DNA from: Klebsiella phage vB_KaeD_HazelMika
Length of the DNA stretch: 51,552 bases
Reading direction: 5' to 3' (one strand)
Sequence record: OL539457.1
The notes beneath the pieces are model-generated. The model was not told where the DNA came from, ran no database searches, and was given only the letters and a program-made list of their open reading frames with translations. How positions within the stretch are numbered: the first letter of the stretch is position 1; each line of letters begins with the position of its first letter. A program made the translations under genes and the position numbers. Positions 6,030 through 49,865 of this stretch are shown piece after piece.

Positions 6030-6036
6030 TCCGAAA

Positions 6037-6059
6037 GGAGCCGAAAGGCTCCTTTTTTA
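6037..6059 (+). terminator. rho-independent terminator ggagccgaaaggctcc + T6
   Basis: Perfect 6-bp stem with a GAAA loop and a T-run. Confidence 0.7.
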
Positions 6060-6079
6060 TTAGCTATCACAAAATCTTG

Positions 6080-6107
6080 TTGACCGTTTAGCAAAAAGTG
6101 CTATTAT
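6080..6107 (+). promoter_or_regulatory. sigma70-like promoter TTGACC-16-TATTAT for major capsid gene, overlapped by reversed TAGCA-N5-TGCTA palindrome
   Basis: Near-consensus hexamers. The spacer at 6087-6103 is the reverse complement of the conserved module motif, reading TAGCACTTTTTGCTAAA on the minus strand. Confidence 0.6.
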
Positions 6108-6149
6108 GAACGCGTGAACTAATCACTTCAAACAACAAAGGAAATCATC

Positions 6150-7103
6150 ATGACTATGAAACTTGATTCATTCGAGAAGAACGAAATCACCCACGGCCTC
6201 CGCAAAATGGGCGTTTCGGCAAGTAAGGCAGACGGCCTGGGCATCTGGACTGTAGAGCAGATGAAGCAGACCTTAAAGCGCCAGTACGAAGCCGCTTACC
6301 CTGAAACCTCCGCGCTGGCGTTGTTCCCTGTAACAACCGAGCTTGCGCCAACAACCCGAATCTTCGAATATATGAAATTCGATGGCGTGACGATGGCAAA
6401 GATTATCGCGGATTATACCGATGACCTGCCAACCGTTGACGCAACGCATAGCCTGGAAACTGGCCGCGTGCATCGCCTGGGTAACGCATGGTTGATTTCC
6501 ATCGACGAAATCAAAACAGGTCAAGCGCTGGGCACTAGCCTTTCCGACCGCAAAGCGTCACTGGCTCGCGAAGGCCATGAATCACTGGTTAATGAACTGG
6601 TGTTCCAGGGTTCCAAGCCTCACAAAATTCTGTCTGTATTTGATCACCCAAACATCACACGCGTAACCTCTGCGGCTGGCGCATGGGCTGACCCTGAGAA
6701 GGCATCAGACGAACTGGAAGATCTGATCGCGAAGATGGAAGAGCTTACCAAAGGCAAGCACAAGATCACCGACATCGTGATCCCGCCATCACAGCGTAAA
6801 TTGCTGGCAAAACGTATGCCTGAAACCACTATGTCATATTTGCAGTGGTTCGAGTCTCAAAACTCCGGCATCACGATTTCTTCAATCTCCGAGCTTGAAG
6901 ATATCGACGGCATCGGCACTAAAGCTGTACTGGCTTATGAAAAAGATCCGCTCAACATGAGCATTGAGATCCCAGAAGCCTTTAACATGCTGCCAATGCA
7001 GGCAAAAGATCTGCACTTTAAAGTGCCGTGTACTTCCAAGGCAACTGGCCTGATCGTATATCGCCCTCTGACGATTATCATGCTGGTTGGCGTAGGTAAG
7101 TAA
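6150..7103 (+). CDS. major capsid protein (lambda gpE-like position)
   Basis: 317 aa with a strong RBS AAAGGAAAT, preceded by a strong promoter and followed by a terminator. The gene order portal-protease/scaffold-decoration-MCP matches lambda. Confidence 0.65.
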   Translation: MTMKLDSFEKNEITHGLRKMGVSASKADGLGIWTVEQMKQTLKRQYEAAYPETSALALFPVTTELAPTTRIFEYMKFDGVTMAKIIADYTDDLPTVDATHSLETGRVHRLGNAWLISIDEIKTGQALGTSLSDRKASLAREGHESLVNELVFQGSKPHKILSVFDHPNITRVTSAAGAWADPEKASDELEDLIAKMEELTKGKHKITDIVIPPSQRKLLAKRMPETTMSYLQWFESQNSGITISSISELEDIDGIGTKAVLAYEKDPLNMSIEIPEAFNMLPMQAKDLHFKVPCTSKATGLIVYRPLTIIMLVGVGK

Positions 7104-7138: not shown

Positions 7139-7167
7139 TTGACACGAGCGGCACCAGAGATTATATT
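7139..7167 (+). promoter_or_regulatory. sigma70 promoter TTGACA-17-TATATT
   Basis: Consensus -35, 17-nt spacer and a good -10. It drives the 88-aa ORF at 7213. Confidence 0.65.
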
Positions 7168-8312: not shown

Positions 8313-8748
8313 CTACCAGATCAGAGAGTTTCATGATTCGGTGGCAAAGTGGATTAAGGCATCGCAATTGGGGCTGGAGGATGTTGTCAGGATCATGGTT
8401 GCCAACATCCACAAGGATTTAGTTTACGGCTCACCAGTTGACACGGGGCGCTTTCGTGCCAACTGGCAGATTACCGCCAACGTGCCGCCGTTCTACGCGC
8501 TCAACCAGTACGACAAAGACGGGAAGAAAACCATTGCAGAAGGTAAGCGAATCACAAACGCCATGCTCACCAGGGGCGCTGCAATAACCACGATTTACTT
8601 TTCCAATATGCTTATTTATGCCAATGCTCTTGAGTACGGGCATTCGAAGCAAGCGCCAGCAGGCGTGCTGGGAATCGTGGCAATCCGGTTGAGATCTTAC
8701 GTTAATAACGCAATTAAAGAGTCGAGGCTAAAAAATGGTGTTAGATGA
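8305..8748 (+). CDS. neck/tail completion protein (putative)
   Basis: 147 aa; position-based call. Confidence 0.3.
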   Translation: MANYQIREFHDSVAKWIKASQLGLEDVVRIMVANIHKDLVYGSPVDTGRFRANWQITANVPPFYALNQYDKDGKKTIAEGKRITNAMLTRGAAITTIYFSNMLIYANALEYGHSKQAPAGVLGIVAIRLRSYVNNAIKESRLKNGVR

Positions 8749-15784: not shown

Positions 15785-15792
15785 TGTATAAT
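15785..15792 (+). promoter_or_regulatory. extended -10 promoter TGTATAAT for J-like gene
   Basis: Same terminator plus extended -10 arrangement as at the window start. The leader at 15804-15826 contains a partial AAATAGCACGAA motif. Confidence 0.45.
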
Positions 15793-15827
15793 GAAACTTC
15801 ACTAAATAGCACGAAAGGTTAAGCACT

Positions 15828-18800: not shown

Positions 18801-19430
18801 GCGGCTATCACCCGCGTTGACAAGGCAATTGCAGACGAGGCGAGCGCGCGAGCAACGGCGATCACTCAAGTTGAAGCCAAGACAACAATGGCGCAGAATA
18901 CCGCGAACAACGCTAACCAAGCGGCGGGAAATGCACAGAATACCGCTAACCAGGCGGCAGCAACGGCAAGCCAAAAGCTTGACTCCTGGGTTAATGGCAC
19001 GTCGATTGGCTCAAGCTATACGTTGAAGCTGGGCGTTAAGTACAATGGGGTTGACTACAACGCCGGAATGAATATGCAGTTGGTTGGAACGGCAGCGGCA
19101 CCGAAAGCGCAAATGCTGTTTGATGTTGACCGCTTCGCAGTGGGCAGAATCAGCGGCGGAACGCTGGCGCAATTCCCGTTTGTTATCGAAGGCGCGCAAG
19201 TATTCATGCAGTCTGTTTTCATCAAAGACGGCTCGATCACAAACGCGAAAATCGGTAATGTGATTCAGTCAAACAACTATGTTGCAGGTCAGACAGGTTG
19301 GAAGATTGACAAAAACGGTAACTTTGAGCTTAACGGCAAGGCTGGCACAGGCCGGATGGTAATTAGCAACAACATCATCCAGATCTATGACGCAAACAAC
19401 CGCCTTCGTGTTCGTATGGGATTGTGGTAA
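15828..19430 (+). CDS. host specificity / central tail fibre protein (lambda J-like)
   Basis: 1200 aa at the end of the tail tip module. The C-terminal third is coiled-coil and repeat-rich. Confidence 0.8.
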   Translation: MKNNMIVTGRKGGSSKPKTPKEMEDNLISINKIKVLLAVSDGECDPDFSLKDLYLNDVPVIAPSGEENYKGIIAEFRPGTQTQDYIKGFTDTASEITVSRVIKADNPYIIAVTNKTLSAIRIKILAPRMVYTESDGDMVGTKVEYAVDMAIDGATYQQVFKDTIDGKTMSGYDRSKRVDLPAFNDQVLLRVRRITADSTDARRVDEIQVQSYAEVIDAKFRYPLTGLVYVEFDSEMFPQMPNISVKKKWKLVNVPSNYNPVLREYVGTWDGVFKKAWTNNPAWVLYDLITNQRYGLDQRELGIAVDKWSLYDAGRYCDQMVPDGKGGMEPRYLCDVVIQSQIEAYNLVRDICSIFRGMSFWNGESLSIVIDRPREASYIFTNDNVVNGSFSYTFASEKSMYTTCNVTFDDEQNMYQQDVEGVFDLEASVRFGHNPTSITAIGCTRRSEANRRGRWILKTNLRSTTVNFATGLEGMIPMIGDVIAIEDNHWSSGNKLSLSGRAMEVSGLQVFTHFRVDARPGDFIIVNKPDGNPVRRTISNVSADGKTIMLNVGFGFDVKPNAVFAIDRTDVTLQQYVVTQISKGDGSDEFCYSITAVEYDPNKYDEIDYGVNIDDRPTSIVDPDNMQPPKNIRVSSYSRVVQGMSVETMVIGWDKAPYASTYDVQWRKDNGNWNNVPRTANSEVEIEGIYSGNYHVRVRSISSGDNMSPWSEVVSVGLTGKVGEPATPINLTATDNEVFGIRVKWGMPTGSEDTAYIELHQSPDGTAQNASLLTMIPYPQYEYWHSILPAGFVDWYRIRSVDRIGNVSQWTKFVRGMASDDVDQIMDVIKIDIENSEGFKELAESTIDSANKIREQAQTDIQNALANDYNLIWTRKQNGNRKAEYGKAVELIATETEARVAAIEELRASIGDDIQGQIITLREAIATEEEARVKAVQQLDVKFTNGLASANANIGRLDEAVVNEQQARAQAITSLDTKFTKQVGDLRTETQAAITRVDKAIADEASARATAITQVEAKTTMAQNTANNANQAAGNAQNTANQAAATASQKLDSWVNGTSIGSSYTLKLGVKYNGVDYNAGMNMQLVGTAAAPKAQMLFDVDRFAVGRISGGTLAQFPFVIEGAQVFMQSVFIKDGSITNAKIGNVIQSNNYVAGQTGWKIDKNGNFELNGKAGTGRMVISNNIIQIYDANNRLRVRMGLW

Positions 19431-19824: not shown

Positions 19825-19868
19825 AGTATAGCCCCATTTGCGGGGCTTGCTTTAGCAATTCGTGCGGT
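19825..19868 (-). promoter_or_regulatory. conserved module (minus): CGCACGAATTGCTAAA + 22 nt hairpin + TATACT
   Basis: The motif lacks the TAG half, reading cgCAC. Hairpin gccccgcaaatggggc, then a -10-like TATACT, then a CA-rich leader to the cor-like start. Confidence 0.5.
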
Positions 19869-21338: not shown

Positions 21339-22397
21339 ATGACACCTACCAAACCGCAAGCGGATTTCTTCTGGTTCACAAACGACGAAATGCCGAACGA
21401 CTTTTATCACGATAAAGAAGCCTGGACGTTCGACTATGTTTCCGGTTCAAGCCTGGGTAAGATTCACTCATCATGCCTGGCAAAGTGGCGCTTCGAAGAG
21501 AATGAGCCAACGGCGGCGCTGGAGTTCGGCACGCAGGCGCACACCAACTTTGAAAGCAACGAGCTATTCGCATCAACCTACCGCCGCGCTCCGTTCGTTG
21601 AAGATTTCAAGGATGCGATCACGTCGCAAGCAGCATTCGCGGCTAAATTGAAAAGCTTCGGCCTGACAGGTACAAGCGGGAAGCAATATCCAGAGCTTTG
21701 CAAAATATACGCTGATTGCGGTGAAGATCTTAACGTAATGTGGATTGAAGATCTGATCGCGCAATCAAAGGCGGCGCGCGATGGCGTTGAGTTGGTAAAG
21801 GCCGAAGATTATGATGCCTGCGTTTCAATGCGTAAGGTGCTGGAGTCTATACCGGAATACGCACAACTAATGAACGATCCGGCAGCGATGCACGAGCTTT
21901 CATTGTTCGGAAAAATCAACGGCGTGAACGTCAAAGTTCGCCTGGACTACTGCGCAACAATCAGCGATCCTGAAATGATTAAGTTGCTGGGCTATAACCC
22001 AGAGATTCACCCAGAGATTGTGCTGATTCTTGACTATAAGACAACGACCAGCGCCAACCCTCACGAGTTCGATCGCAAGGCGTTTGATCTGGGCTATTAC
22101 TTGAAGATGGCTTTGCAGCGTGATTTGTTTGTCAAGGTGTTTGAAGAAACGCGCCCCGTCGCAGTTGTCCTACTAACCCAGGAAAAGAAAGCGCCATTCT
22201 TGCCTCTGGCTCGACCAATGACGAAAGAGCAGATCATTCACGGGCGCAAGCAGTACATGAGCGTTATTCACCAGTACGAGATCAGCAGCCGTGATGACGT
22301 TTGGCCTTCATACGCAAACGGCGCTCCATTCGTTCACCTGCAAACGCCGGATTACATCAAGCGCCAACATCCTGATATTTACGGCGAAAACAAATAG
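21339..22397 (+). CDS. PD-(D/E)XK recombination exonuclease (RecE/exoVIII-like)
   Basis: 352 aa with RBS GAGG before the ATG at 21339. Carries an ILDYKT nuclease-type motif and lies upstream of erf and ssb. The track start at 21279 is a TTG artefact inside the promoter. Confidence 0.55.
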   Translation: MTPTKPQADFFWFTNDEMPNDFYHDKEAWTFDYVSGSSLGKIHSSCLAKWRFEENEPTAALEFGTQAHTNFESNELFASTYRRAPFVEDFKDAITSQAAFAAKLKSFGLTGTSGKQYPELCKIYADCGEDLNVMWIEDLIAQSKAARDGVELVKAEDYDACVSMRKVLESIPEYAQLMNDPAAMHELSLFGKINGVNVKVRLDYCATISDPEMIKLLGYNPEIHPEIVLILDYKTTTSANPHEFDRKAFDLGYYLKMALQRDLFVKVFEETRPVAVVLLTQEKKAPFLPLARPMTKEQIIHGRKQYMSVIHQYEISSRDDVWPSYANGAPFVHLQTPDYIKRQHPDIYGENK

Positions 22398-22437
22398 CAC
22401 TAAAAGCTAAAAAAAAAGAGGCTCATACGGTATAATG
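22392..22437 (+). promoter_or_regulatory. conserved module: AAATAGCACTAAAAGCTAAAAA + hairpin containing TATAAT
   Basis: The hairpin gaggctcat/atgagcctc encloses TATAAT in its loop. It precedes erf. Confidence 0.5.
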
Positions 22438-26137: not shown

Positions 26138-26155
26138 ATAGCACGAATTGCTAAA
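26138..26155 (+). promoter_or_regulatory. TAGCACGAATTGCTAAA palindrome copy upstream of fibre gene start
   Basis: Full consensus copy about 25 nt upstream of the minus-strand fibre ATG. On the fibre strand it reads GTGCTATTAA, abutting a -10-like hexamer. Confidence 0.5.
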
Positions 26156-26181
26156 TGCCATTGTAGCAATGTTTCAGGCAC

Positions 26182-27160: not shown

Positions 27161-27194
27161 AATAAAAAAGGTTGCACCGATTATGGCACAACCT
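27161..27194 (-). terminator. stem-loop + T-run (minus strand) after HTH gene
   Basis: aggttgtgccataatcggtgcaacct followed by T7 on the minus strand. Confidence 0.5.
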
Positions 27195-27199
27195 CTGGC

Positions 27200-27676
27200 T
27201 TATTCTTTAGCTTTTAGTGCTGCCTCACGCTCGCGCTTAATCCGTTTCCATGATGGTTGTTCCGGCTTGTGGGCTAACTCATCCTCACGAACCACACGCA
27301 TCATTTCACGCTTTTTGCATCGCACTGTTAATGGCTTGCCGTTGCCGTCGAAGGTGAGATCTGGTCGGCACCATGTAGCGCGAAAGCCCTTAGCCCCATT
27401 TCGCTTATATGCGTTGTGCGCCTTCTGCGCCCCGCGCGCGGAAATCATGCCGTTTTTAATCCAGGTGGTGAGCAGTGAGTTTGAGATCTTCAACTCACGG
27501 CAAACGTTGGCCTTCGAGCCGTAAAACTCGATAAGCATTTCAAGGCGGGCACGCAATCCGGCCTTTACTTCATCTTTCAGAACGTAGTAGCCTGTAGGCC
27601 GCTTGCGCTTCTTCTTGTCTGCGCCGCGCTGAGTTCCGTTGTTCCCGTTAATGGTTCTCTTGTCAACTTCAATCAT
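27200..27676 (-). CDS. HTH DNA-binding protein (putative transcriptional regulator)
   Basis: 158 aa, very basic, with a helix-turn-helix-like segment ANVCRELKISNSLLTTWIKNG. RBS GGGGGA. The conserved palindrome lies 11 nt upstream of its start codon. Confidence 0.5.
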   Translation of the reverse strand: MIEVDKRTINGNNGTQRGADKKKRKRPTGYYVLKDEVKAGLRARLEMLIEFYGSKANVCRELKISNSLLTTWIKNGMISARGAQKAHNAYKRNGAKGFRATWCRPDLTFDGNGKPLTVRCKKREMMRVVREDELAHKPEQPSWKRIKREREAALKAKE

Positions 27677-27686
27677 AAATCCCCCG

Positions 27687-27729
27687 ATAGCACTTTTTGT
27701 TAAACATTCTATTCGATAGCGTGTATTAT
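27687..27729 (+). promoter_or_regulatory. conserved module: ATAGCACTTTTTGTTAAAC + 21 nt + TATTAT
   Basis: Precedes the helicase and overlaps the divergent 5' UTR of the HTH gene. Confidence 0.5.
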
Positions 27730-27767
27730 AGCCGTAATCGAACGAACCTCAAAGGCATTTAATCACC

Positions 27768-29843: not shown

Positions 29844-30259
29844 TCACCGATAAAGGCGAATATCTTGAGTATTACCAGGCCAACCCCCTGGACACGTGGA
29901 AAGAGGAAAAACACCAGGTTGATTGCGTGGCATGGCTGCGCTATCACTACCCGAACCTTTTATTCTGGCACACAGTCAACGAAGGGAAAAAGCATATCAA
30001 TTCCGCCCTTCGTGATGAGCAGGCGGGTCTAAAAAAGGGCGTAAGCGACTTCGTAATCCTGATTGGTCATAACGATCGCAAGTACGCATTTGCGGCGATT
30101 GAGTTGAAGAGAACCAACAAGAGCGGCAAGGCCAAAGCATCGCCAGTTAGCAAAGAGCAGAAAGCTTTCTTGCTTGACGTGCGCGAGCGCGGAGGATTCG
30201 CGGCGGTTGCATACGGTCTGGATCAGTTTAAATTAGCGATCGAAGATATGTTGAAATAG
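29840..30259 (+). CDS. VRR-NUC domain nuclease
   Basis: 139 aa with a PD-(D/E)XK-type motif SDFVILIG..AIELKR. Overlaps the helicase stop. Confidence 0.55.
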   Translation: MITDKGEYLEYYQANPLDTWKEEKHQVDCVAWLRYHYPNLLFWHTVNEGKKHINSALRDEQAGLKKGVSDFVILIGHNDRKYAFAAIELKRTNKSGKAKASPVSKEQKAFLLDVRERGGFAAVAYGLDQFKLAIEDMLK

Positions 30260-30299
30260 CACGAATTGCTAAACACGTGCCGGAGCAATCCTGCATAAT
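30254..30299 (+). promoter_or_regulatory. conserved module: AAATAGCACGAATTGCTAAAC + 22 nt hairpin (GCAA loop) + CATAAT
   Basis: The TAG inside the motif is the stop of the VRR-NUC gene. Precedes dam. Confidence 0.55.
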
Positions 30300-31059: not shown

Positions 31060-31290
31060 ATGCAAGATCGCAACGTTAGACTGAATGAGATCGGCCTGAA
31101 ATGTTTGTTTGTTGGCCTTGTTTGCGCACAGCTTGAAATTGCTGGATTCACTGGAGATGCCTTCAAGCTGGCAAACTCTCTTGATATGAGCTTTGAAGAG
31201 ATAGCGCCGAAGGATATCATTGAATGGGGCGCGCTAATCGCCAAAGACCTTGAAGAGTTCAAGGCTGAAAACCCCGAAGAGTTCGAATAG
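31060..31290 (+). CDS. hypothetical protein
   Basis: 76 aa, acidic. Ends at the TAG inside the next module. Confidence 0.4.
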   Translation: MQDRNVRLNEIGLKCLFVGLVCAQLEIAGFTGDAFKLANSLDMSFEEIAPKDIIEWGALIAKDLEEFKAENPEEFE

Positions 31291-31330
31291 CACTAATTGC
31301 TAAACATACCCGCCTCCGTGCGGGTATACT
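31286..31330 (+). promoter_or_regulatory. conserved module: AATAGCACTAATTGCTAAAC + 22 nt hairpin + TATACT
   Basis: Hairpin acccgcctccgtgcgggt. Confidence 0.55.
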
Positions 31331-32177: not shown

Positions 32178-33329
32178 ATGCAACGCAAAATTTCAGATGA
32201 GCAGTTAATCGCAGAGCGCGAATCAGGCAAAACACAGCGCCAGATCGCGGAAGAGTACGGCATGAATCAGCGCACAGTTGAGCAGCGTTGCGCACGCCTG
32301 GCGAAGAAAGGCCACGGGCACGGTAACAGCACTGTTAGCCGCCATGTGCCGGACGGGTTCGCAGTAAAGGGCACGTCAACCATGATTCGCGCGAATGGCG
32401 AAGAGGTGATCCGATGGGTTAAGACCGATCAGGATCGCGAGAAGTTAGCAGCCATGATGGATGCGGCTATTGATGCGTTTTGCGAAGAGTTGCCGCGAGC
32501 AGCAGCACAGCCAGCCCCACTTGTTCATAACTGGAAAGAAGATCAGCTTGCTCTTTATCCTGTCTTTGACCTGCACATTGGCGCTATGGCTCATAAGCAC
32601 GAGTGCGGCGAAAACTACAGCACTGATATTTCAGAAAAGGTGCTGGGAGACTTCTTCAACTACGCCGTAAACGTAGCGCCGGAAGCGAAAAAAGCAGTTC
32701 TGTTAATCGGCGGTGACTTCCTTCACTCTGACGGCCTGGACGCTGTAACACCTGCAAGCGGTCACGTTCTGGATCAGGACTCACGCTACGCTAAACTTGT
32801 GCATGTTGCGATCCGCTCCACTCGCCGCGCAGTTGCAAAAATGCTGGACAAGCACGCAGAGGTTGAGATCCAGATCATCGAGGGGAACCATGACCAGGCT
32901 GGCATGATTTGGCTTCGTGCTGCAATGGCTGCATTCTATGAAGATGAGCCGCGCGTCACCGTTGACGTTAGCCCAATGATTCTGCACCGGACGAAGTGGG
33001 GCAAAACGCTGTTAGGCTACACTCACGGGCACACGATGAAGAAAGCAGAAACACGCCTTGCGGCGATGGCTACGGACTTCCGCGAAGAGTTCGGCACCAG
33101 CAAATACATTTACACCCACTCTGGGCACTGGCACCACCAGACGATCACAGAGGGCACTTTAGGGATTGACGAAGTGCATGGGCAGTTAGGCGCAAAAGAT
33201 GCCTACGCCGCGCGCGGCGGCTGGCGCTCATATCGTCAAGCGGCGGTGATCGTCTACTCCAAAGAGTTTGGCGAAATCGGGCGTTTCGTGTATCGTCCAG
33301 AAATGGCAGAAAATAGCACGAAAAGCTAA
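32178..33329 (+). CDS. HTH domain + calcineurin-like metallophosphoesterase
   Basis: 383 aa with an N-terminal HTH (GKTQRQIAEEYGMNQRTVEQ) and phosphoesterase motifs GGDFLHSDG, GNHD and GH..H. Confidence 0.5.
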   Translation: MQRKISDEQLIAERESGKTQRQIAEEYGMNQRTVEQRCARLAKKGHGHGNSTVSRHVPDGFAVKGTSTMIRANGEEVIRWVKTDQDREKLAAMMDAAIDAFCEELPRAAAQPAPLVHNWKEDQLALYPVFDLHIGAMAHKHECGENYSTDISEKVLGDFFNYAVNVAPEAKKAVLLIGGDFLHSDGLDAVTPASGHVLDQDSRYAKLVHVAIRSTRRAVAKMLDKHAEVEIQIIEGNHDQAGMIWLRAAMAAFYEDEPRVTVDVSPMILHRTKWGKTLLGYTHGHTMKKAETRLAAMATDFREEFGTSKYIYTHSGHWHHQTITEGTLGIDEVHGQLGAKDAYAARGGWRSYRQAAVIVYSKEFGEIGRFVYRPEMAENSTKS

Positions 33330-33356
33330 ACAATTGCCGGAGTAATCCGGCATACT
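33311..33356 (+). promoter_or_regulatory. conserved module: AAATAGCACGAAAAGCTAAAC + 22 nt hairpin (GTAA loop) + CATACT
   Basis: Contains the TAA stop of the upstream gene. Followed by a CA-rich leader. Confidence 0.55.
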
Positions 33357-33386
33357 CCAGCTATACCAACCAAAGAGGAAAACATT

Positions 33387-33717: not shown

Positions 33718-33730
33718 TGCTTCTAGTTTG

Positions 33731-33749
33731 TCAAAAAGTGCTGTATTAT
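33731..33749 (+). promoter_or_regulatory. reversed palindrome half-motif abutting -10 (CAAAAAGTGCTGTATTAT) before lysis cassette
   Basis: Same arrangement as at the major-capsid promoter (GTGC followed by TATTAT). Confidence 0.4.
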
Positions 33750-37066: not shown

Positions 37067-37110
37067 AATGTACCGGAACCATGATACAGACGTTATGCAA
37101 AAAGTGCTAT
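37067..37110 (-). promoter_or_regulatory. conserved module (minus): ATAGCACTTTTTGCAT + 22 nt hairpin + TACATT
   Basis: Precedes the DUF3987 gene. The spacer contains the hairpin ggttccggtacattagccggaacc. Confidence 0.5.
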
Positions 37111-37530: not shown

Positions 37531-37566
37531 TATGAGATCCTTTGTTGTCTCGTTTGGTGTAAAATG

Positions 37567-37610
37567 AATATAACAAAACCCGCCGAAGCGGGTTTAACAA
37601 AAAGTGCTAT
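37567..37610 (-). promoter_or_regulatory. conserved module (minus): ATAGCACTTTTTGTTAAA + 22 nt terminator-like hairpin (cccgcTTCGgcggg) + TATATT
   Basis: The hairpin is identical to the one at window positions 8-21. Confidence 0.55.
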
Positions 37611-39367: not shown

Positions 39368-39411
39368 ATTATGACAAATCACACCGGATCAGTTTTAACA
39401 AAAAGTGCTAT
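39368..39411 (-). promoter_or_regulatory. conserved module (minus): ATAGCACTTTTTGTTAAAAC + 22 nt + CATAAT
   Basis: Followed by the leader gctttcacaccaaccaaacaagg. Confidence 0.55.
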
Positions 39412-39969: not shown

Positions 39970-40014
39970 ATAATAACAAAAGCACGAACCGCCGTTTTAG
40001 CAATTCGTGCTATT
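39970..40014 (-). promoter_or_regulatory. conserved module (minus): AATAGCACGAATTGCTAAAAC + 22 nt + TATTAT
   Basis: Full consensus motif. Confidence 0.55.
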
Positions 40015-40547: not shown

Positions 40548-40593
40548 ATAGTAACCCATCGCCCCTGATCGGTTTTAGCAAAAAGTGCTATTT
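40548..40593 (-). promoter_or_regulatory. conserved module (minus): ATAGCACTTTTTGCTAAAAC + 22 nt + TACTAT
   Basis: Spacer hairpin cgatcaggggcgatgggt. Confidence 0.55.
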
Positions 40594-40610
40594 ATTCGAT
40601 TGCCCTCCAT

Positions 40611-40667
40611 TATTCCAGTTATTCCAATTATTCCGAATATTCCATTCCATCGGAATAACTATTCCAG
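40611..40667. repeat. iteron-like array TATTCC(A/G) x6 (one copy inverted)
   Basis: Copies of tattcca/ttattcca at 40611, 40619, 40630, 40638, 40645 and 40660, with an inverted cggaata at 40651. Confidence 0.7.
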
Positions 40668-41977: not shown

Positions 41978-42193
41978 ATGAACAATTATCGAGTAGTGCA
42001 CATCAAAGAGTATGATGCGGAAGGTTATACGAGCGCCTCATATTACGCGGTTGAGCGTAGGGTGCGATTCATCCCCTGGCTCTGGCGACACGTCAAGTTC
42101 TACGATCGCAGTGAAGAGGCTTTCTTCCACAAGTCAAGGCTGGACAGGGTGAAGGGTAAGCGAAAAGAGCGAATCATCATCAGCAACGAATAG
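41978..42193 (+). CDS. hypothetical protein (paralog of previous gene)
   Basis: 71 aa with a YAVERRVRFIPW..HKSR pattern. Confidence 0.45.
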   Translation: MNNYRVVHIKEYDAEGYTSASYYAVERRVRFIPWLWRHVKFYDRSEEAFFHKSRLDRVKGKRKERIIISNE

Positions 42194-42233
42194 CACGAAT
42201 TGCTAAACATTAGCCGGAGCAATCCGGCATAAT
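42189..42233 (+). promoter_or_regulatory. conserved module: AATAGCACGAATTGCTAAAC + 22 nt hairpin + CATAAT
   Basis: The extended hairpin cattagccggaGCAAtccggcataatg pairs the -10 hexamer into the stem. Confidence 0.55.
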
Positions 42234-42265
42234 GCTTTCACACCAAACGAAACGAGGCAATGAAC

Positions 42266-42712
42266 ATGAGCAACCAGGCAAAGGCAATCAAACTTATCGC
42301 ACGCATCGAATCTGCAAACCGTTACATCTTCTCTGGCAACTATGATGCCGATGAGCTTGCAAAGGCAACAGCCGATCGTAATGCGATGGTTGCCGAATAT
42401 CTGGATCTGATTGACAGCATCGCCAAAGAAAACGAAATGGTAGATTTTGCAGAGCAGGTGGCAAAGGTTGCCGAAGATGATGGCGTGCAACTCCGTTACG
42501 CGGCTTTCATGGTTTCAACGTGTGACCGTTCAGTCAAAGGCCGTGGTGCTGAGTTCATGTCGTTTATCTCTGATGTCAAGGCTCTTTACATGCGAGCGCA
42601 TCCAGAGCAAATCTATTGCGGCGGTCACATTGGTTGTCATGACCATTTCACAAGCTACATCATTTCGGGCGAATGGCTTGAGGCAACGCGAGCGGTTCAT
42701 GCGGCAAAATAG
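42266..42712 (+). CDS. hypothetical protein
   Basis: 148 aa with RBS GAGG. Confidence 0.45.
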   Translation: MSNQAKAIKLIARIESANRYIFSGNYDADELAKATADRNAMVAEYLDLIDSIAKENEMVDFAEQVAKVAEDDGVQLRYAAFMVSTCDRSVKGRGAEFMSFISDVKALYMRAHPEQIYCGGHIGCHDHFTSYIISGEWLEATRAVHAAK

Positions 42713-42752
42713 CACGAATAGCTAAAACCACAATCAGGGGATATGCCATAAT
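42707..42752 (+). promoter_or_regulatory. conserved module: AAATAGCACGAATAGCTAAAAC + 22 nt hairpin + CATAAT
   Basis: A ggggatatgc/atagcccc stem with the -10 in the loop. Confidence 0.55.
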
Positions 42753-43077: not shown

Positions 43078-43388
43078 TGAAAAGGTTTAAAATACTGGCT
43101 CCGATTGCACTACTGACAGCGCTTGCGCTCACTGGCTGCGATGATTCAACCAGGGTTCCCCGTGAGCAGCGAGGAAAAGTGCAGGTCACAACGGCAGAAT
43201 CAGGCCGCGTACAGGTGCGCAAAATCAGTGAATTTCGCGATGACCTGGCTTATGACGATTATCGCGGCGTGTACATCATCACGGACACCGAAACGGGGCA
43301 AGAGTTCATCGGCGTTAGCGGCGTGGGCATCAGCGCGATCGGGCAGCACAATTGCGGTAAAAGTTGCTGGCGGAAAGACGAACGATAG
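43077..43388 (+). CDS. lipoprotein
   Basis: 103 aa with signal peptide and lipobox LTGC. Confidence 0.5.
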   Translation: MKRFKILAPIALLTALALTGCDDSTRVPREQRGKVQVTTAESGRVQVRKISEFRDDLAYDDYRGVYIITDTETGQEFIGVSGVGISAIGQHNCGKSCWRKDER

Positions 43389-43428
43389 CACTTTTTGTTA
43401 AAACGGATGCGCTCTGATTGGTTATGAT
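43385..43428 (+). promoter_or_regulatory. conserved module: ATAGCACTTTTTGTTAAAAC + 22 nt hairpin + TATGAT
   Basis: An atgcgc/gcgcat stem encloses TGATTGGTTATGAT. Confidence 0.55.
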
Positions 43429-44276: not shown

Positions 44277-44395
44277 GCAAGCTTGAAACAATCATCGTCG
44301 TAACTGCTGGGCTGGCGCTGGCTTGTCTCATCGTCGAGCAACTAATTTACACGGCGTTAGCGATCCGGCAGCGCAACAAAGACAAAAAGCACTAA
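44273..44395 (+). CDS. small membrane protein (40 aa)
   Basis: MSKLETIIVVTAGLALACLIVEQLIYTALAIRQRNKDKKH, ATGA-coupled. Its stop codon sits at the start of the next module. Confidence 0.35.
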   Translation: MSKLETIIVVTAGLALACLIVEQLIYTALAIRQRNKDKKH

Positions 44396-44429
44396 TTGCT
44401 AAAACGGGATGCGCTCTGAGTGGTATCAT
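44385..44429 (+). promoter_or_regulatory. conserved module: AAAAGCACTAATTGCTAAAAC + 22 nt + TATCAT
   Basis: Contains TGAGTGGTATCAT, an extended -10-like element. Confidence 0.55.
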
Positions 44430-45061: not shown

Positions 45062-45141
45062 ATGAGCCTGGAAAGTTCGCAATCGGTATTTTGATTTGGC
45101 TTGCGGCGATCTTCTGGCTTGCGTGCATTATTGCCGGATAG
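45058..45141 (+). CDS. micro-ORF, 27-aa hydrophobic peptide (putative)
   Basis: MNEPGKFAIGILIWLAAIFWLACIIAG, ATGA-coupled. Its stop is the TAG of the next module. Confidence 0.3.
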   Translation: MNEPGKFAIGILIWLAAIFWLACIIAG

Positions 45142-45181
45142 CACTTTTTGTTAAAACTTCCGCAAGGCCATTTGATATAGT
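45138..45181 (+). promoter_or_regulatory. conserved module: ATAGCACTTTTTGTTAAAAC + 22 nt hairpin + TATAGT
   Basis: An aaggcca/tggcctt stem encloses the -10. Confidence 0.55.
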
Positions 45182-45835: not shown

Positions 45836-46021
45836 ATGCAGATTTACAAATCACCAGGCGGCGCGCGTTACGTTGTGATAAACGGCTTCGTGTACTGCAA
45901 GCCAGTTGAGGGAATGGTTTTCCTTTCCTCGATGAGCGTTGAGCGATTTCTTGCTCTTATCGCTGGTGGCCTGCTTACTTTTGAAAAGCTGATACCGCCA
46001 ATCATTCTGAAAAAGCACTAA
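45836..46021 (+). CDS. hypothetical protein
   Basis: 61 aa. Confidence 0.35.
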   Translation: MQIYKSPGGARYVVINGFVYCKPVEGMVFLSSMSVERFLALIAGGLLTFEKLIPPIILKKH

Positions 46022-46055
46022 TTGCTAAAACTTGCCCAGGGGCATTTGATAGAAT
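46011..46055 (+). promoter_or_regulatory. conserved module: AAAAGCACTAATTGCTAAAAC + 22 nt hairpin + TAGAAT
   Basis: A ggcat/atgcc stem. Confidence 0.5.
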
Positions 46056-46095: not shown

Positions 46096-46692
46096 ATGAC
46101 TATCCAACGATACAGGCCGAAACTGGCAGGCGAAGGCCGCAACAAGCGCGCCGTAATGACCACTGACACGCACGGCGTGTATGTAACCCACGCATCACAT
46201 CAGGAAGAAATGGACCGCTTAAAACGCGAATTAGACGCCTTAAAAGACGGCTTAAAACGTCAAATTTTTGCGCCGCTTGAAAAAGCCATGATGAATGCGC
46301 TTATTAAAACGGCGATGCAGGCAACGCAGACCGTCTACACCGTCAACCCATGCGACAAGCTGACTTCCGAGCGCGTGCGTGAAATTATGGATGCGCAGAT
46401 CGGATGCGGAGTGATTCAGATCAGTGAGGAGTTGAGCAACGCCGAATCAGGATTCATGACGCGCCACGTTTTAGCCATGCCTGAGCCGAAAGTGCTGTTG
46501 TGCATCAAGTCAGAAGCGACCAGCTTTGTTGCTGGAAATCGGTACGAATACGAAATGAAAGACGGCGCTTTGTTCGTTGCGCAAGATGAATTCGTTTCCG
46601 ATCTTCATGAAGAGGATTTCTGGCACGTAACGGACGGCGGCGCGTATTACATCGTTGAAACGGTGGCGGGTAACGCGTACTTTAAGAAATAG
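46096..46692 (+). CDS. hypothetical protein
   Basis: 198 aa with RBS GCGAGG. Confidence 0.45.
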   Translation: MTIQRYRPKLAGEGRNKRAVMTTDTHGVYVTHASHQEEMDRLKRELDALKDGLKRQIFAPLEKAMMNALIKTAMQATQTVYTVNPCDKLTSERVREIMDAQIGCGVIQISEELSNAESGFMTRHVLAMPEPKVLLCIKSEATSFVAGNRYEYEMKDGALFVAQDEFVSDLHEEDFWHVTDGGAYYIVETVAGNAYFKK

Positions 46693-46732
46693 CACTTTTT
46701 GTTAAGCGGAATCGTGCGCTGATTGGTATGAT
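46687..46732 (+). promoter_or_regulatory. conserved module: AAATAGCACTTTTTGTTAAG + 22 nt hairpin + TATGAT
   Basis: An 8-bp stem gcggaatc/gattccgc encloses TGATTGGTATGAT. Confidence 0.55.
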
Positions 46733-48149: not shown

Positions 48150-48193
48150 ATAGCACGAATTGCTAAACCCGCTCCGGCGGGTTTTGTTATAGT
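48149..48193 (+). promoter_or_regulatory. conserved module: AAATAGCACGAATTGCTAAAC + 22 nt terminator-like hairpin + TATAGT
   Basis: Hairpin cccgctccggcggg followed by TTTTGT. Confidence 0.55.
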
Positions 48194-48622: not shown

Positions 48623-48783
48623 AAACTTTCCTGATCTTCATGGCTGGCTCAATCATGCTAGCAGCAACAACCGAAGGCGTAACGCCGTTAATCGCAGGCG
48701 GCCTTATCGCCTGGGCTTATTACCGCTGCGGGCACGATGACGGATTCAAGGCCGGAAAGCGAAACATCTTAACTGGCAAATAG
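48619..48783 (+). CDS. small membrane protein (54 aa)
   Basis: MKTFLIFMAGSIMLAATTEGVTPLIAGGLIAWAYY..., ATGA-coupled. The alternative is the 93-aa track ORF 48502-48783 in the same frame. Confidence 0.35.
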   Translation: MKTFLIFMAGSIMLAATTEGVTPLIAGGLIAWAYYRCGHDDGFKAGKRNILTGK

Positions 48784-48823
48784 CACGATTTGTTAAAAGG
48801 GCATTCATCCTGATTGGTATGAT
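48778..48823 (+). promoter_or_regulatory. conserved module: AAATAGCACGATTTGTTAAAAG + 22 nt hairpin + TATGAT
   Basis: A gggcat/atgccc stem encloses TGATTGGTATGAT. Confidence 0.55.
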
Positions 48824-49821: not shown

Positions 49822-49865
49822 ATAGCACGAATTGCTAAAACAAGCCTGGGGTAAGCTGTTATAGT
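49820..49865 (+). promoter_or_regulatory. conserved module: AAATAGCACGAATTGCTAAAAC + 22 nt hairpin + TATAGT
   Basis: A ggggtaa/ttacccc stem encloses the -10. Confidence 0.55.

Follow-up and report, generated by a model that had tools for sequence, protein, structure and literature searches.

Putative marboxes at early, middle and late promoters of the T1-type Klebsiella phage vB_KaeD_HazelMika

The DNA analysed here, the complete 51,552-nucleotide genome of Klebsiella phage vB_KaeD_HazelMika (sequence record OL539457.1; hereafter the window), is that of a member of the Drexlerviridae, the T1 family, in the genus Vilniusvirus. Its major capsid protein gene is preceded by an intrinsic terminator (−16.5 kcal/mol for 6030–6066; hairpin energies are from RNAfold), which ends the transcript of the upstream head gene, so that the capsid gene needs a promoter of its own. 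A near-consensus promoter had been predicted there from the sequence and is present, with 16 nt between TTGACC and TATTAT; it has an extended −10, scores 10/12 in a consensus scan for −35/−10 promoters (scored out of 12), and ranks within the top three promoter matches of the first 20 kb. The spacer is filled by an inverted copy of an element that occurs about 25 times in the window and that is, by its sequence, a marbox, the oriented 20-bp site of the host regulators MarA, SoxS and Rob (RamA in Klebsiella). It appears that the entire transcription programme of the phage is coupled to a host antibiotic-stress factor of this kind. The coordinates of all features are given in Table 1.

The inverted marbox overlaps positions −12 to −10 of the capsid promoter, and the TAT of the −10 hexamer is provided by the ATA with which the marbox starts. 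The original prediction held that the spacer at 6087–6103 is the inverted form of a motif found at other phage genes, and this is borne out with 0 mismatches, the minus strand reading TAGCACTTTTTGCTAAA. Four genomes of other genera—LF82-10, Ec_L1, TH30 and T1—were used for comparison; these are no more than 76–79% identical to the window in the capsid region (as compared with 99.7% for KLB19 and 98.5% for vB_EcoS_NBD2), and together with the window they make up the five genera referred to below. The capsid copy is kept with its −35 and −10 across all five, and 16 nt (CAAAAAGTGCTATTAT) are invariant while the flanks diverge. A leader stem-loop 3′ of the capsid −10 (6112–6126) keeps its pairing through compensatory changes (window, GCGTGA..TCAC; T1, where a T-run follows, GCCGTGA..TCACGG; Ec_L1, GAGCCGTG..ACGGCTC) and may be a 5′ stabiliser or an attenuator.

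Marbox consensus sequences were taken from PMC12052159 and PMC2064960, the version in the latter being AYNGCACNNWNNRYYAAAYN. The window contains nine perfect and 26 one-mismatch copies of this 20-mer, as against 0 and 0.8 expected, and both the capsid copy (6085–6104, minus strand) and a copy before the tail-fibre gene (26138–26157, plus strand) match it at 20/20 positions. Perfect 15-mers of the form gcannwwntgnnaaa number 20 (0.38 expected), TAGCA-N5-TGCTA with up to one mismatch occurs 22 times (1.2 expected), and the 17-mer motif with up to three mismatches 20 times (0.25 expected). The marRAB marbox of E. coli K-12, TTTAGCAAAACGTGGCAT, is nearly equal to the capsid spacer. A pattern scan of viral_contigs for the motif returned a single locus and was uninformative.

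The motif had been described as a full palindrome, a description that does not survive comparison of its copies. A profile of 123 modules from the five genomes (A−2, T−1, A0, G1 C2 A3 C4, W6 W7, T8 T9 G10, Y11 T12, A13 A14 A15) is asymmetric over a conserved stretch of about 19–20 bp, and only TAGCA/TG(C/T)TA, 5+5 bp, is self-complementary. Conserved positions A−2, C4, T8, A14 and A15 break the symmetry, the pairs A−2/A14, A−3/A15 and C4/T8 being non-complementary, so that the two-fold symmetry of a Cro/cI-type operator is absent over the conserved positions. The layout is instead that of a marbox, with recognition element 1 (RE1) GCAC and recognition element 2 (RE2) YAAA separated by 7 bp and the oriented consensus matched. 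The left flank, aaATAGCAC, is conserved as well and gives GTGCTATtt on the opposite strand, where every module reads GTGCTATT; a GTGC followed by TATT is therefore intrinsic to the motif and is not independent evidence for a −10. Several other readings of the motif were considered and rejected. The sigma54 −24/−12 element (TGGCAC-N5-TTGCW) differs from the observed TAGCAC-N3-TTGC in having GG in place of AG and in being 2 bp longer in its spacing, and the presence of a sigma70-type −10 at a fixed distance 3′ of the motif also counts against it; sites for integration host factor (IHF) and Fis, and UP elements, disagree with it in spacing or invariant bases relative to the textbook consensus; and TTGCTA is excluded as a −35 hexamer, since 22 nt separate it from the −10 in each of the modules.

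Forward marboxes are found in all 22 early and middle promoter modules of the window, with 20 nt between the end of TAAA and the −10 in 20 of them and 19 nt in the other two. The modules have no −35 hexamer, this position reading (T)AAA(A/C)(C/A), of which the best, TAAACA, matches at 4/6; the −10 is TATAAT-like, and is preceded by the TGn of an extended −10 in 13 of the 22. Setting the hexamer at −12 to −7 places the beginning of GCAC at −47 and the centre of the element near −42, in agreement with the location originally predicted for the early and middle units. The same architecture is seen in T1, TH30, Ec_L1 and LF82-10, at 20–27 modules per genome. Class II promoters are those in which a forward marbox overlaps the −35, clustered near −41, with no recognisable −35 hexamer, and where the activator displaces sigma70 region 4 from the −35 (PMC10268841; PMC8811837; PMC9178005). 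With a forward marbox over the −35 position near −41, no recognisable −35 and a −10 in place, the phage modules are predicted to be of this class.

The model class II promoter, E. coli micF, reads GCACTGAATGTCAAA, 20 nt, TAGAAT and then the annotated RNA 5′ end, and thus has the same 20-nt spacing from AAA to hexamer as the phage modules. Other host class II promoters (fumC, inaA and lpxC P2) likewise share with micF and with the phage a forward asymmetric 20-bp marbox near −41/−42, no −35 and a good −10. The phage modules are unlike them in number (about 22 in a 51.5-kb genome), in having near-ideal marboxes where those of the host are degenerate, and in forming compact cassettes that begin at the upstream stop codon, often with the terminator hairpin of the upstream gene in the spacer; their dependence on a factor is a prediction. 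Canonical −35/−10 promoters are no more frequent throughout the genome than in shuffled sequence by the consensus scan, which argues that the marbox cassettes are the main promoter type of the phage.

Table 1. Promoter elements, putative marboxes and associated genes in the window.
Feature	Position	Strand	Remarks
Intrinsic terminator hairpin	6033–6056	+	GGAGCC-GAAA-GGCTCC, extended, plus T-run; ends upstream head-gene transcript
−35 hexamer TTGACC, major capsid promoter	6080–6085	+	TTG invariant in five genera
Inverted 20-bp marbox ATAGCACTTTTTGCTAAACG	6085–6104	−	20/20 to AYNGCACNNWNNRYYAAAYN
Extended −10 TGcTATTAT	6099–6107	+	TATTAT 6102–6107; TG 6099–6100, from GCAC end of marbox
Major capsid protein gene	6150–7103	+	
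J (tip attachment) gene promoter, extended −10 TGTATAAT	15785–15792	+	Downstream of terminator
Marbox-like site ATAGCACGAAAGGTTAAGCA, forward, J leader	15806–15825	+	1 mismatch; overlaps Shine-Dalgarno
Class II-type module	19825–19868	−	Forward marbox, 20 nt, TATACT
Class II-type module, recombinase gene	22394–22436	+	19-nt distance, TATAAT
Marbox ATAGCACGAATTGCTAAATG	26138–26157	+	20/20; inverted relative to minus-strand tail-fibre gene; about +1 to +20 of extended −10 promoter
Extended −10 TGcTACAAT, likelier fibre promoter	26160–26168	−	
Class II-type module, primase gene	27180–27223	−	Degenerate marbox, CATAAT
Phage "transcriptional regulator" gene (PHROG_2856)	27200–27676	−	Cro-type single helix-turn-helix; rival candidate binder
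Class II-type module, helicase gene	27687–27729	+	20/20 marbox, 19-nt distance, TGTATTAT
Class II-type module, dam methylase gene	30256–30299	+	20/20 marbox
Class II-type module	31287–31330	+	20/20 marbox
Class II-type module	33313–33356	+	20/20 marbox
Marbox-like site ACAGCACTTTTTGACAAACT, inverted, before holin gene	33725–33744	−	15-mer core perfect, 1 mismatch to 20-mer; TATTAT 33744–33749
Class II-type module	37067–37110	−	Degenerate RE2 (GCATAA)
Class II-type module	37567–37610	−	20/20 marbox; terminator hairpin fills spacer
Class II-type module	39368–39411	−	
Class II-type module	39970–40013	−	
Class II-type module	40548–40591	−	17-mer same as that of capsid copy
Class II-type module	42190–42233	+	20/20 marbox
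Class II-type module	42709–42752	+	
Class II-type module	43385–43428	+	
Class II-type module	44386–44429	+	
Class II-type module	45138–45181	+	
Class II-type module	46012–46055	+	
Class II-type module	46689–46732	+	
Class II-type module	48150–48193	+	20/20 marbox; terminator hairpin fills spacer
Class II-type module	48780–48823	+	
Class II-type module	49822–49865	+	

Good marboxes outside the class II position are all located in or just after the promoters of structural or lysis genes, with the exception of the helicase-module site, which falls in the leader of a regulator gene as well. Putative core-promoter sites—in the spacer or over the start site—are found at the capsid, fibre and J genes. 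The fibre copy, which includes GTGCTATTAAC and precedes the fibre gene on the minus strand, is present at this gene in all five genomes. The arrangement of GTGC followed by TATTA(A/T) proposed for it exists as sequence but is a poor candidate for a promoter, as the TATTAA or TATTTA adjoining the marbox has no T at −7 and a conserved extended −10 of better sequence sits 4–5 nt upstream (its counterparts are TGaTATAAT in LF82-10, TGgTACAAT in Ec_L1 and TGaTAAAAT in T1). The partial copy predicted in the J leader is also present (ATAGCACGAAAGGTTAAG, 15806–15825), and is conserved in four genera (the window, LF82-10, T1 and TH30). Before the holin gene there is a variant copy (TTTGTCAAAAAGTGCtgTATTAT), as predicted, but its arrangement is not that of the capsid: the distance to TATTAT is greater by 2 bp, TG is missing at −15/−14, and the copy is specific to the genus, being absent from LF82-10, Ec_L1 and T1. 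Among these late promoters with a copy, only that of the capsid gene fits the description near-consensus, which was originally applied to late promoters in general. Two further late copies occur in T1 alone (8355–8385 and 18833–18852), one at terS, forward over the −10 and start site, and one at the tape-measure chaperone gene, inverted and abutting TATCAA. That different lineages have independently gained different late-gene copies argues for a function.

A marbox within a promoter spacer has a precedent in pbpG, where MarA and SoxS act as repressors in vivo, and SoxS does so in vitro as well (PMC12052159). We read the E. coli pbpG promoter as TTGACG-atcGCACTTTTTGCTcgt-TATGAT; it is a sigma70 promoter with the marbox between −35 and −10 (spacer GCACTTTTTGCT), like that of the capsid gene, but the pbpG site is forward whereas the phage site is inverted. 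The sequence AGCAAAAAATGCTATTAT upstream of E. coli rob is identical at 17 of 18 positions to the capsid spacer plus −10, AGCAAAAAGTGCTATTAT. Both pbpG and rob have poor RE2 halves, whereas the capsid site matches the consensus at 20/20. The rob promoter region (K-12 NC_000913.3, about 4635350–4635400) also contains a micF-like forward marbox, ACACTGAATGCTAAA, and has AGCAAAAAATGC, which is nearly the capsid spacer, beside TATTAT. In a 2006 study, Schneiders and Levy reportedly found that open-complex formation at rob is blocked by MarA, SoxS and Rob, which bind in the interval separating its −35 and −10, and core-promoter marbox repression is reportedly described in their 2004 and 2006 papers for rob, purA and hdeA. 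A different outcome is seen at flgBP2, a sigma28 promoter that MarA activates from inside, by distorting base pairs approximately 5 bp from its site (PMC12781870). As at the capsid gene, the flgBP2 marbox is in reverse orientation between the promoter elements and near the −10; the two differ in that flgBP2 uses sigma28, is defective in melting, and has its site in another register relative to −11.

Opposite effects of one protein according to its position, as proposed here, are known for lambda cI, which at OR2 activates PRM from −42 and represses PR. More generally, lambda cI, Mu Mor and C, and T4 MotA/AsiA are each cases where one factor acting at −35-less promoters (at about −42 or −30) runs a phage programme. 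However, cI, Mor and C are phage-encoded dimers that bind dyads and MotA is phage-encoded with its box at −30, whereas the site in the window is asymmetric and matches that of a host regulator.

Two phage helix-turn-helix (HTH) proteins, encoded at 27200–27676 and 32178–33329, had been put forward as binders, and neither is now the favoured one; the likeliest binder would be a host monomer of the MarA/SoxS/Rob/RamA type. The product of 32178–33329 is an exonuclease with a weak N-terminal HTH. Homologues of the protein encoded at 27200–27676 carry P22_Cro/YdaS domains (PF14549/PF15943), and its structure model, at a predicted local distance difference test (pLDDT) score of 86, matches Xfaso1 and N15 Cro; it is modelled as a single Cro-type HTH and would bind a dyad as a dimer. 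The gene keeps its locus in every relative and encodes the one recognisable dedicated regulator of these phages. Searches for an AraC/XylS homologue with a MarA/SoxS/Rob profile and phmmer in all six frames of the window and five relatives gave none (best E-value 0.17), the MarA query having been validated by a full-length match to PDB 1BL0, and the 34 non-structural open reading frames have no HTH_18/AraC and no MerR Pfam match. No MarA mimic encoded by the phage was found by profile, phmmer or Pfam, and the predicted fold of the regulator is Cro-like and not a double HTH. The regulator gene has a promoter of its own, TTGAGG-16-TATAAT (27752–27725, minus strand), with the helicase-module marbox in its leader. 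In each of the five genomes the −10 TATTATA of helicase and the −10 TATAATA of the regulator, on the opposite strand, coincide base for base (27723–27731 in the window), so that these divergent promoters must be competitors for RNA polymerase; the marbox would give the advantage to the helicase promoter.

MarA, SoxS and Rob, regulators of the AraC/XylS family, bind the marbox as monomers; Rob is constitutive and abundant, and RamA is a marbox regulator of Klebsiella. We propose that a host protein of this type, already present at infection, would activate the class II cassettes by replacing the contact of sigma70 region 4 with the −35. The same protein on the inverted site would hinder RNA polymerase at the capsid promoter, as at E. 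coli pbpG and rob, and probably also at the fibre and J promoters, such that one factor would push early and late genes in opposite ways. Relief of the repression is more speculative, and might come from titration by replicating phage DNA, from loss or inactivation of the host factor, or from competition by the Cro-like protein. We assign a probability of roughly 0.6 to a host marbox factor activating the class II cassettes and hindering the capsid, and probably the fibre and J, promoters; for repression at the inverted capsid copy, considered by itself, the odds are about even. The earlier proposal that one factor has opposite outcomes by position is thus upheld in its architecture (about 22 early and middle modules against a few core-promoter or downstream late copies, E. 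coli precedents, and conservation in five genera) and not supported as to the phage HTH identity of the factor. A more ambitious version is doubtful as a whole: that the Drexlerviridae, including T1, have no early activator of their own and borrow Rob, MarA, SoxS or RamA through about 20–25 marboxes per genome, that from inverted or downstream sites this protein also keeps the capsid, fibre and J promoters low, and that the switch comes about by titration on thousands of replicated high-affinity sites or by decay of labile host factors after host shut-off. Under that version, bile salts, oxidants and antibiotics, by activating these regulators, would tune phage development.

Several considerations weigh against regulation by a host marbox protein. 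Without stress, most Rob is inactive or sequestered and there is little MarA or SoxS in the cell (PMC9178005), yet growth of T1-like phages in plain broth is rapid. A constant host factor alone does not provide timing, and the support for such regulation consists of sequence and geometry only. Two strong late promoters, TTGACA-17-TATATT (7139–7167) and TGgTATAAT (41–49), carry no copy, so that the site cannot be a universal late switch and does not mark late promoters as a class, as had been suggested. The phages do have a conserved Cro-type HTH protein, the promoter region of which has no other conserved element, and a dimer at −42 can activate too, as lambda cI does at PRM. Finally, repression is not the only outcome reported for sites of this kind, since MarA activates flgBP2 from inside the promoter (PMC12781870) and a reverse site over the −35 gives MarA activation of yadG (PMC10268841).

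The conserved Cro-type regulator itself could be the binder, recognising TAGCA-N5-TGCTA as a dimer, activating from about −42 and repressing in a spacer or leader, in which case the likeness to the marbox would be coincidence or mimicry. Its gene has a constant locus among the relatives and a Cro/P22_Cro/YdaS-type HTH, so that a predicted cognate dimeric-HTH gene of the kind associated with Cro/cI operators does lie nearby (27200–27676); the site in its own leader is a typical autoregulatory layout, no conserved element other than the marbox site is found in the regulator/helicase intergenic region, and the half-sites are 10 bp apart. We nevertheless regard this as unlikely and rank a host factor first, because the symmetry is limited to 5+5 bp and is interrupted at the five positions listed above; because the orientation is the same in 22/22 modules; because a 23-bit match to the marbox consensus together with micF-identical spacing would be an accident; because the early promoters have to be active when no phage protein has yet been made, whereas early genes would have to wait for synthesis of the regulator; and because repression of the late promoters by a phage protein would deepen as it accumulated, which is the opposite of what a delay requires. 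The MerR-type spacer-binding activator suggested originally, which would realign the −35 and −10, is scarcely credible even though the site is centred in the spacer. Promoters of that type are defined by a spacer of 19–20 bp, and that of the capsid promoter is 16 bp; moreover the site is not a MerR-type dyad, and a MerR-family protein is among those not found in the phage by Pfam.

Two other explanations concern the capsid copy. This copy could be positive or neutral in effect, either by supplying the TG of the extended −10 and an A-tract spacer, or by having a bound MarA-type protein help to open the −10, as the reverse site does at flgBP2. The GCAC end does give TGc directly before TATTAT, and a boost would be sensible for a protein in such demand as that of the capsid; but an extended −10 needs the TG only, and yet all 15–20 bp of the marbox are invariant in five genera. 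Moreover, flgBP2 is a case of rescue of a melting-deficient sigma28 promoter, whereas the capsid promoter is near-consensus sigma70 with the site 3 bp closer to the −10, and the sigma70 examples of spacer marboxes (pbpG and rob) are repressed, all of which makes this explanation unlikely too. Alternatively, the inverted copy could be part of a divergent leftward class II promoter, whose short transcript would be antisense to the terminator of the upstream head gene or to the 3′ end of that gene. Exactly 20 nt past the marbox on the minus strand, TGnTA is found in all five genera (TGaTAGCTA, TGgTAGACA, TGtTATCAG, TGtTAAGCG and TGtTATACA) and corresponds to an invariant TAnCAnAAA upstream of the capsid −35 (6061–6073, plus strand), which might act as an UP element or as a weak promoter for antisense transcription. 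However, none of the five hexamers has T at −7, the start would fall in or beside the terminator hairpin, the conserved A-rich block might just as well serve the capsid promoter as an UP element, and the fibre copy has no such downstream hexamer; we consider a divergent promoter quite improbable.

To our knowledge, gene timing in T1-type phages, which have no RNA polymerase or sigma factor of their own, has never been explained. The genome papers on T1-like phages that were consulted rely on promoter predictions of the BPROM type, and in the literature we found no paper that describes the motif or links marboxes to T1-like phages or the Drexlerviridae, although older T1 papers may have noticed the motif. 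The element and both promoter architectures are of known kinds; their wholesale use by a family of virulent phages and the inverted capsid copy appear to be new. If regulation by a host marbox factor is correct, early phage expression is linked to multidrug-resistance regulators that respond to bile, salicylate, oxidants and antibiotics, with a bearing on phage–antibiotic combinations and on the ecology of gut phages. A lytic phage would then also be clearly shown to employ a single host transcription factor as both activator and repressor, and its compact marbox cassettes would offer ready-made promoter parts responsive to that factor.

In many of the cassettes the 20-nt gap between marbox and −10 is a G+C-rich hairpin, in some a full intrinsic terminator (37576–37595 on the minus strand, 48165–48184 and 31306–31327 on the plus strand, 42213–42228, 33336–33361 and others). 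An example is CCCGCTTCGGCGGG followed by TTTTGT, in which the T-run supplies the TG of the extended −10, so that a terminator and a promoter are nested in about 45 bp. A cassette usually starts with the upstream gene's stop codon, which is often the TAG of TAGCAC itself. The "promoter-early stem-loop" (PeSL) cassettes of T4-type phages are, we presume, a possible analogue of these hairpin-in-spacer modules. Module leaders, 7–30 nt 3′ of the −10 (for example 42240–42255 and 37545–37560), have in common cACACCAAAC-GA or cATCGAAACGA before the Shine-Dalgarno, and these conserved sequences are also present in T1, TH30, Ec_L1 and LF82-10. Directly upstream of the leftward module at 40548–40591 is a cluster of direct and inverted TTATTCC/GGAATAA repeats (40600–40665); a similar cluster is located at the equivalent place in T1 and LF82-10, and may be another protein-binding array at the head of an early region.

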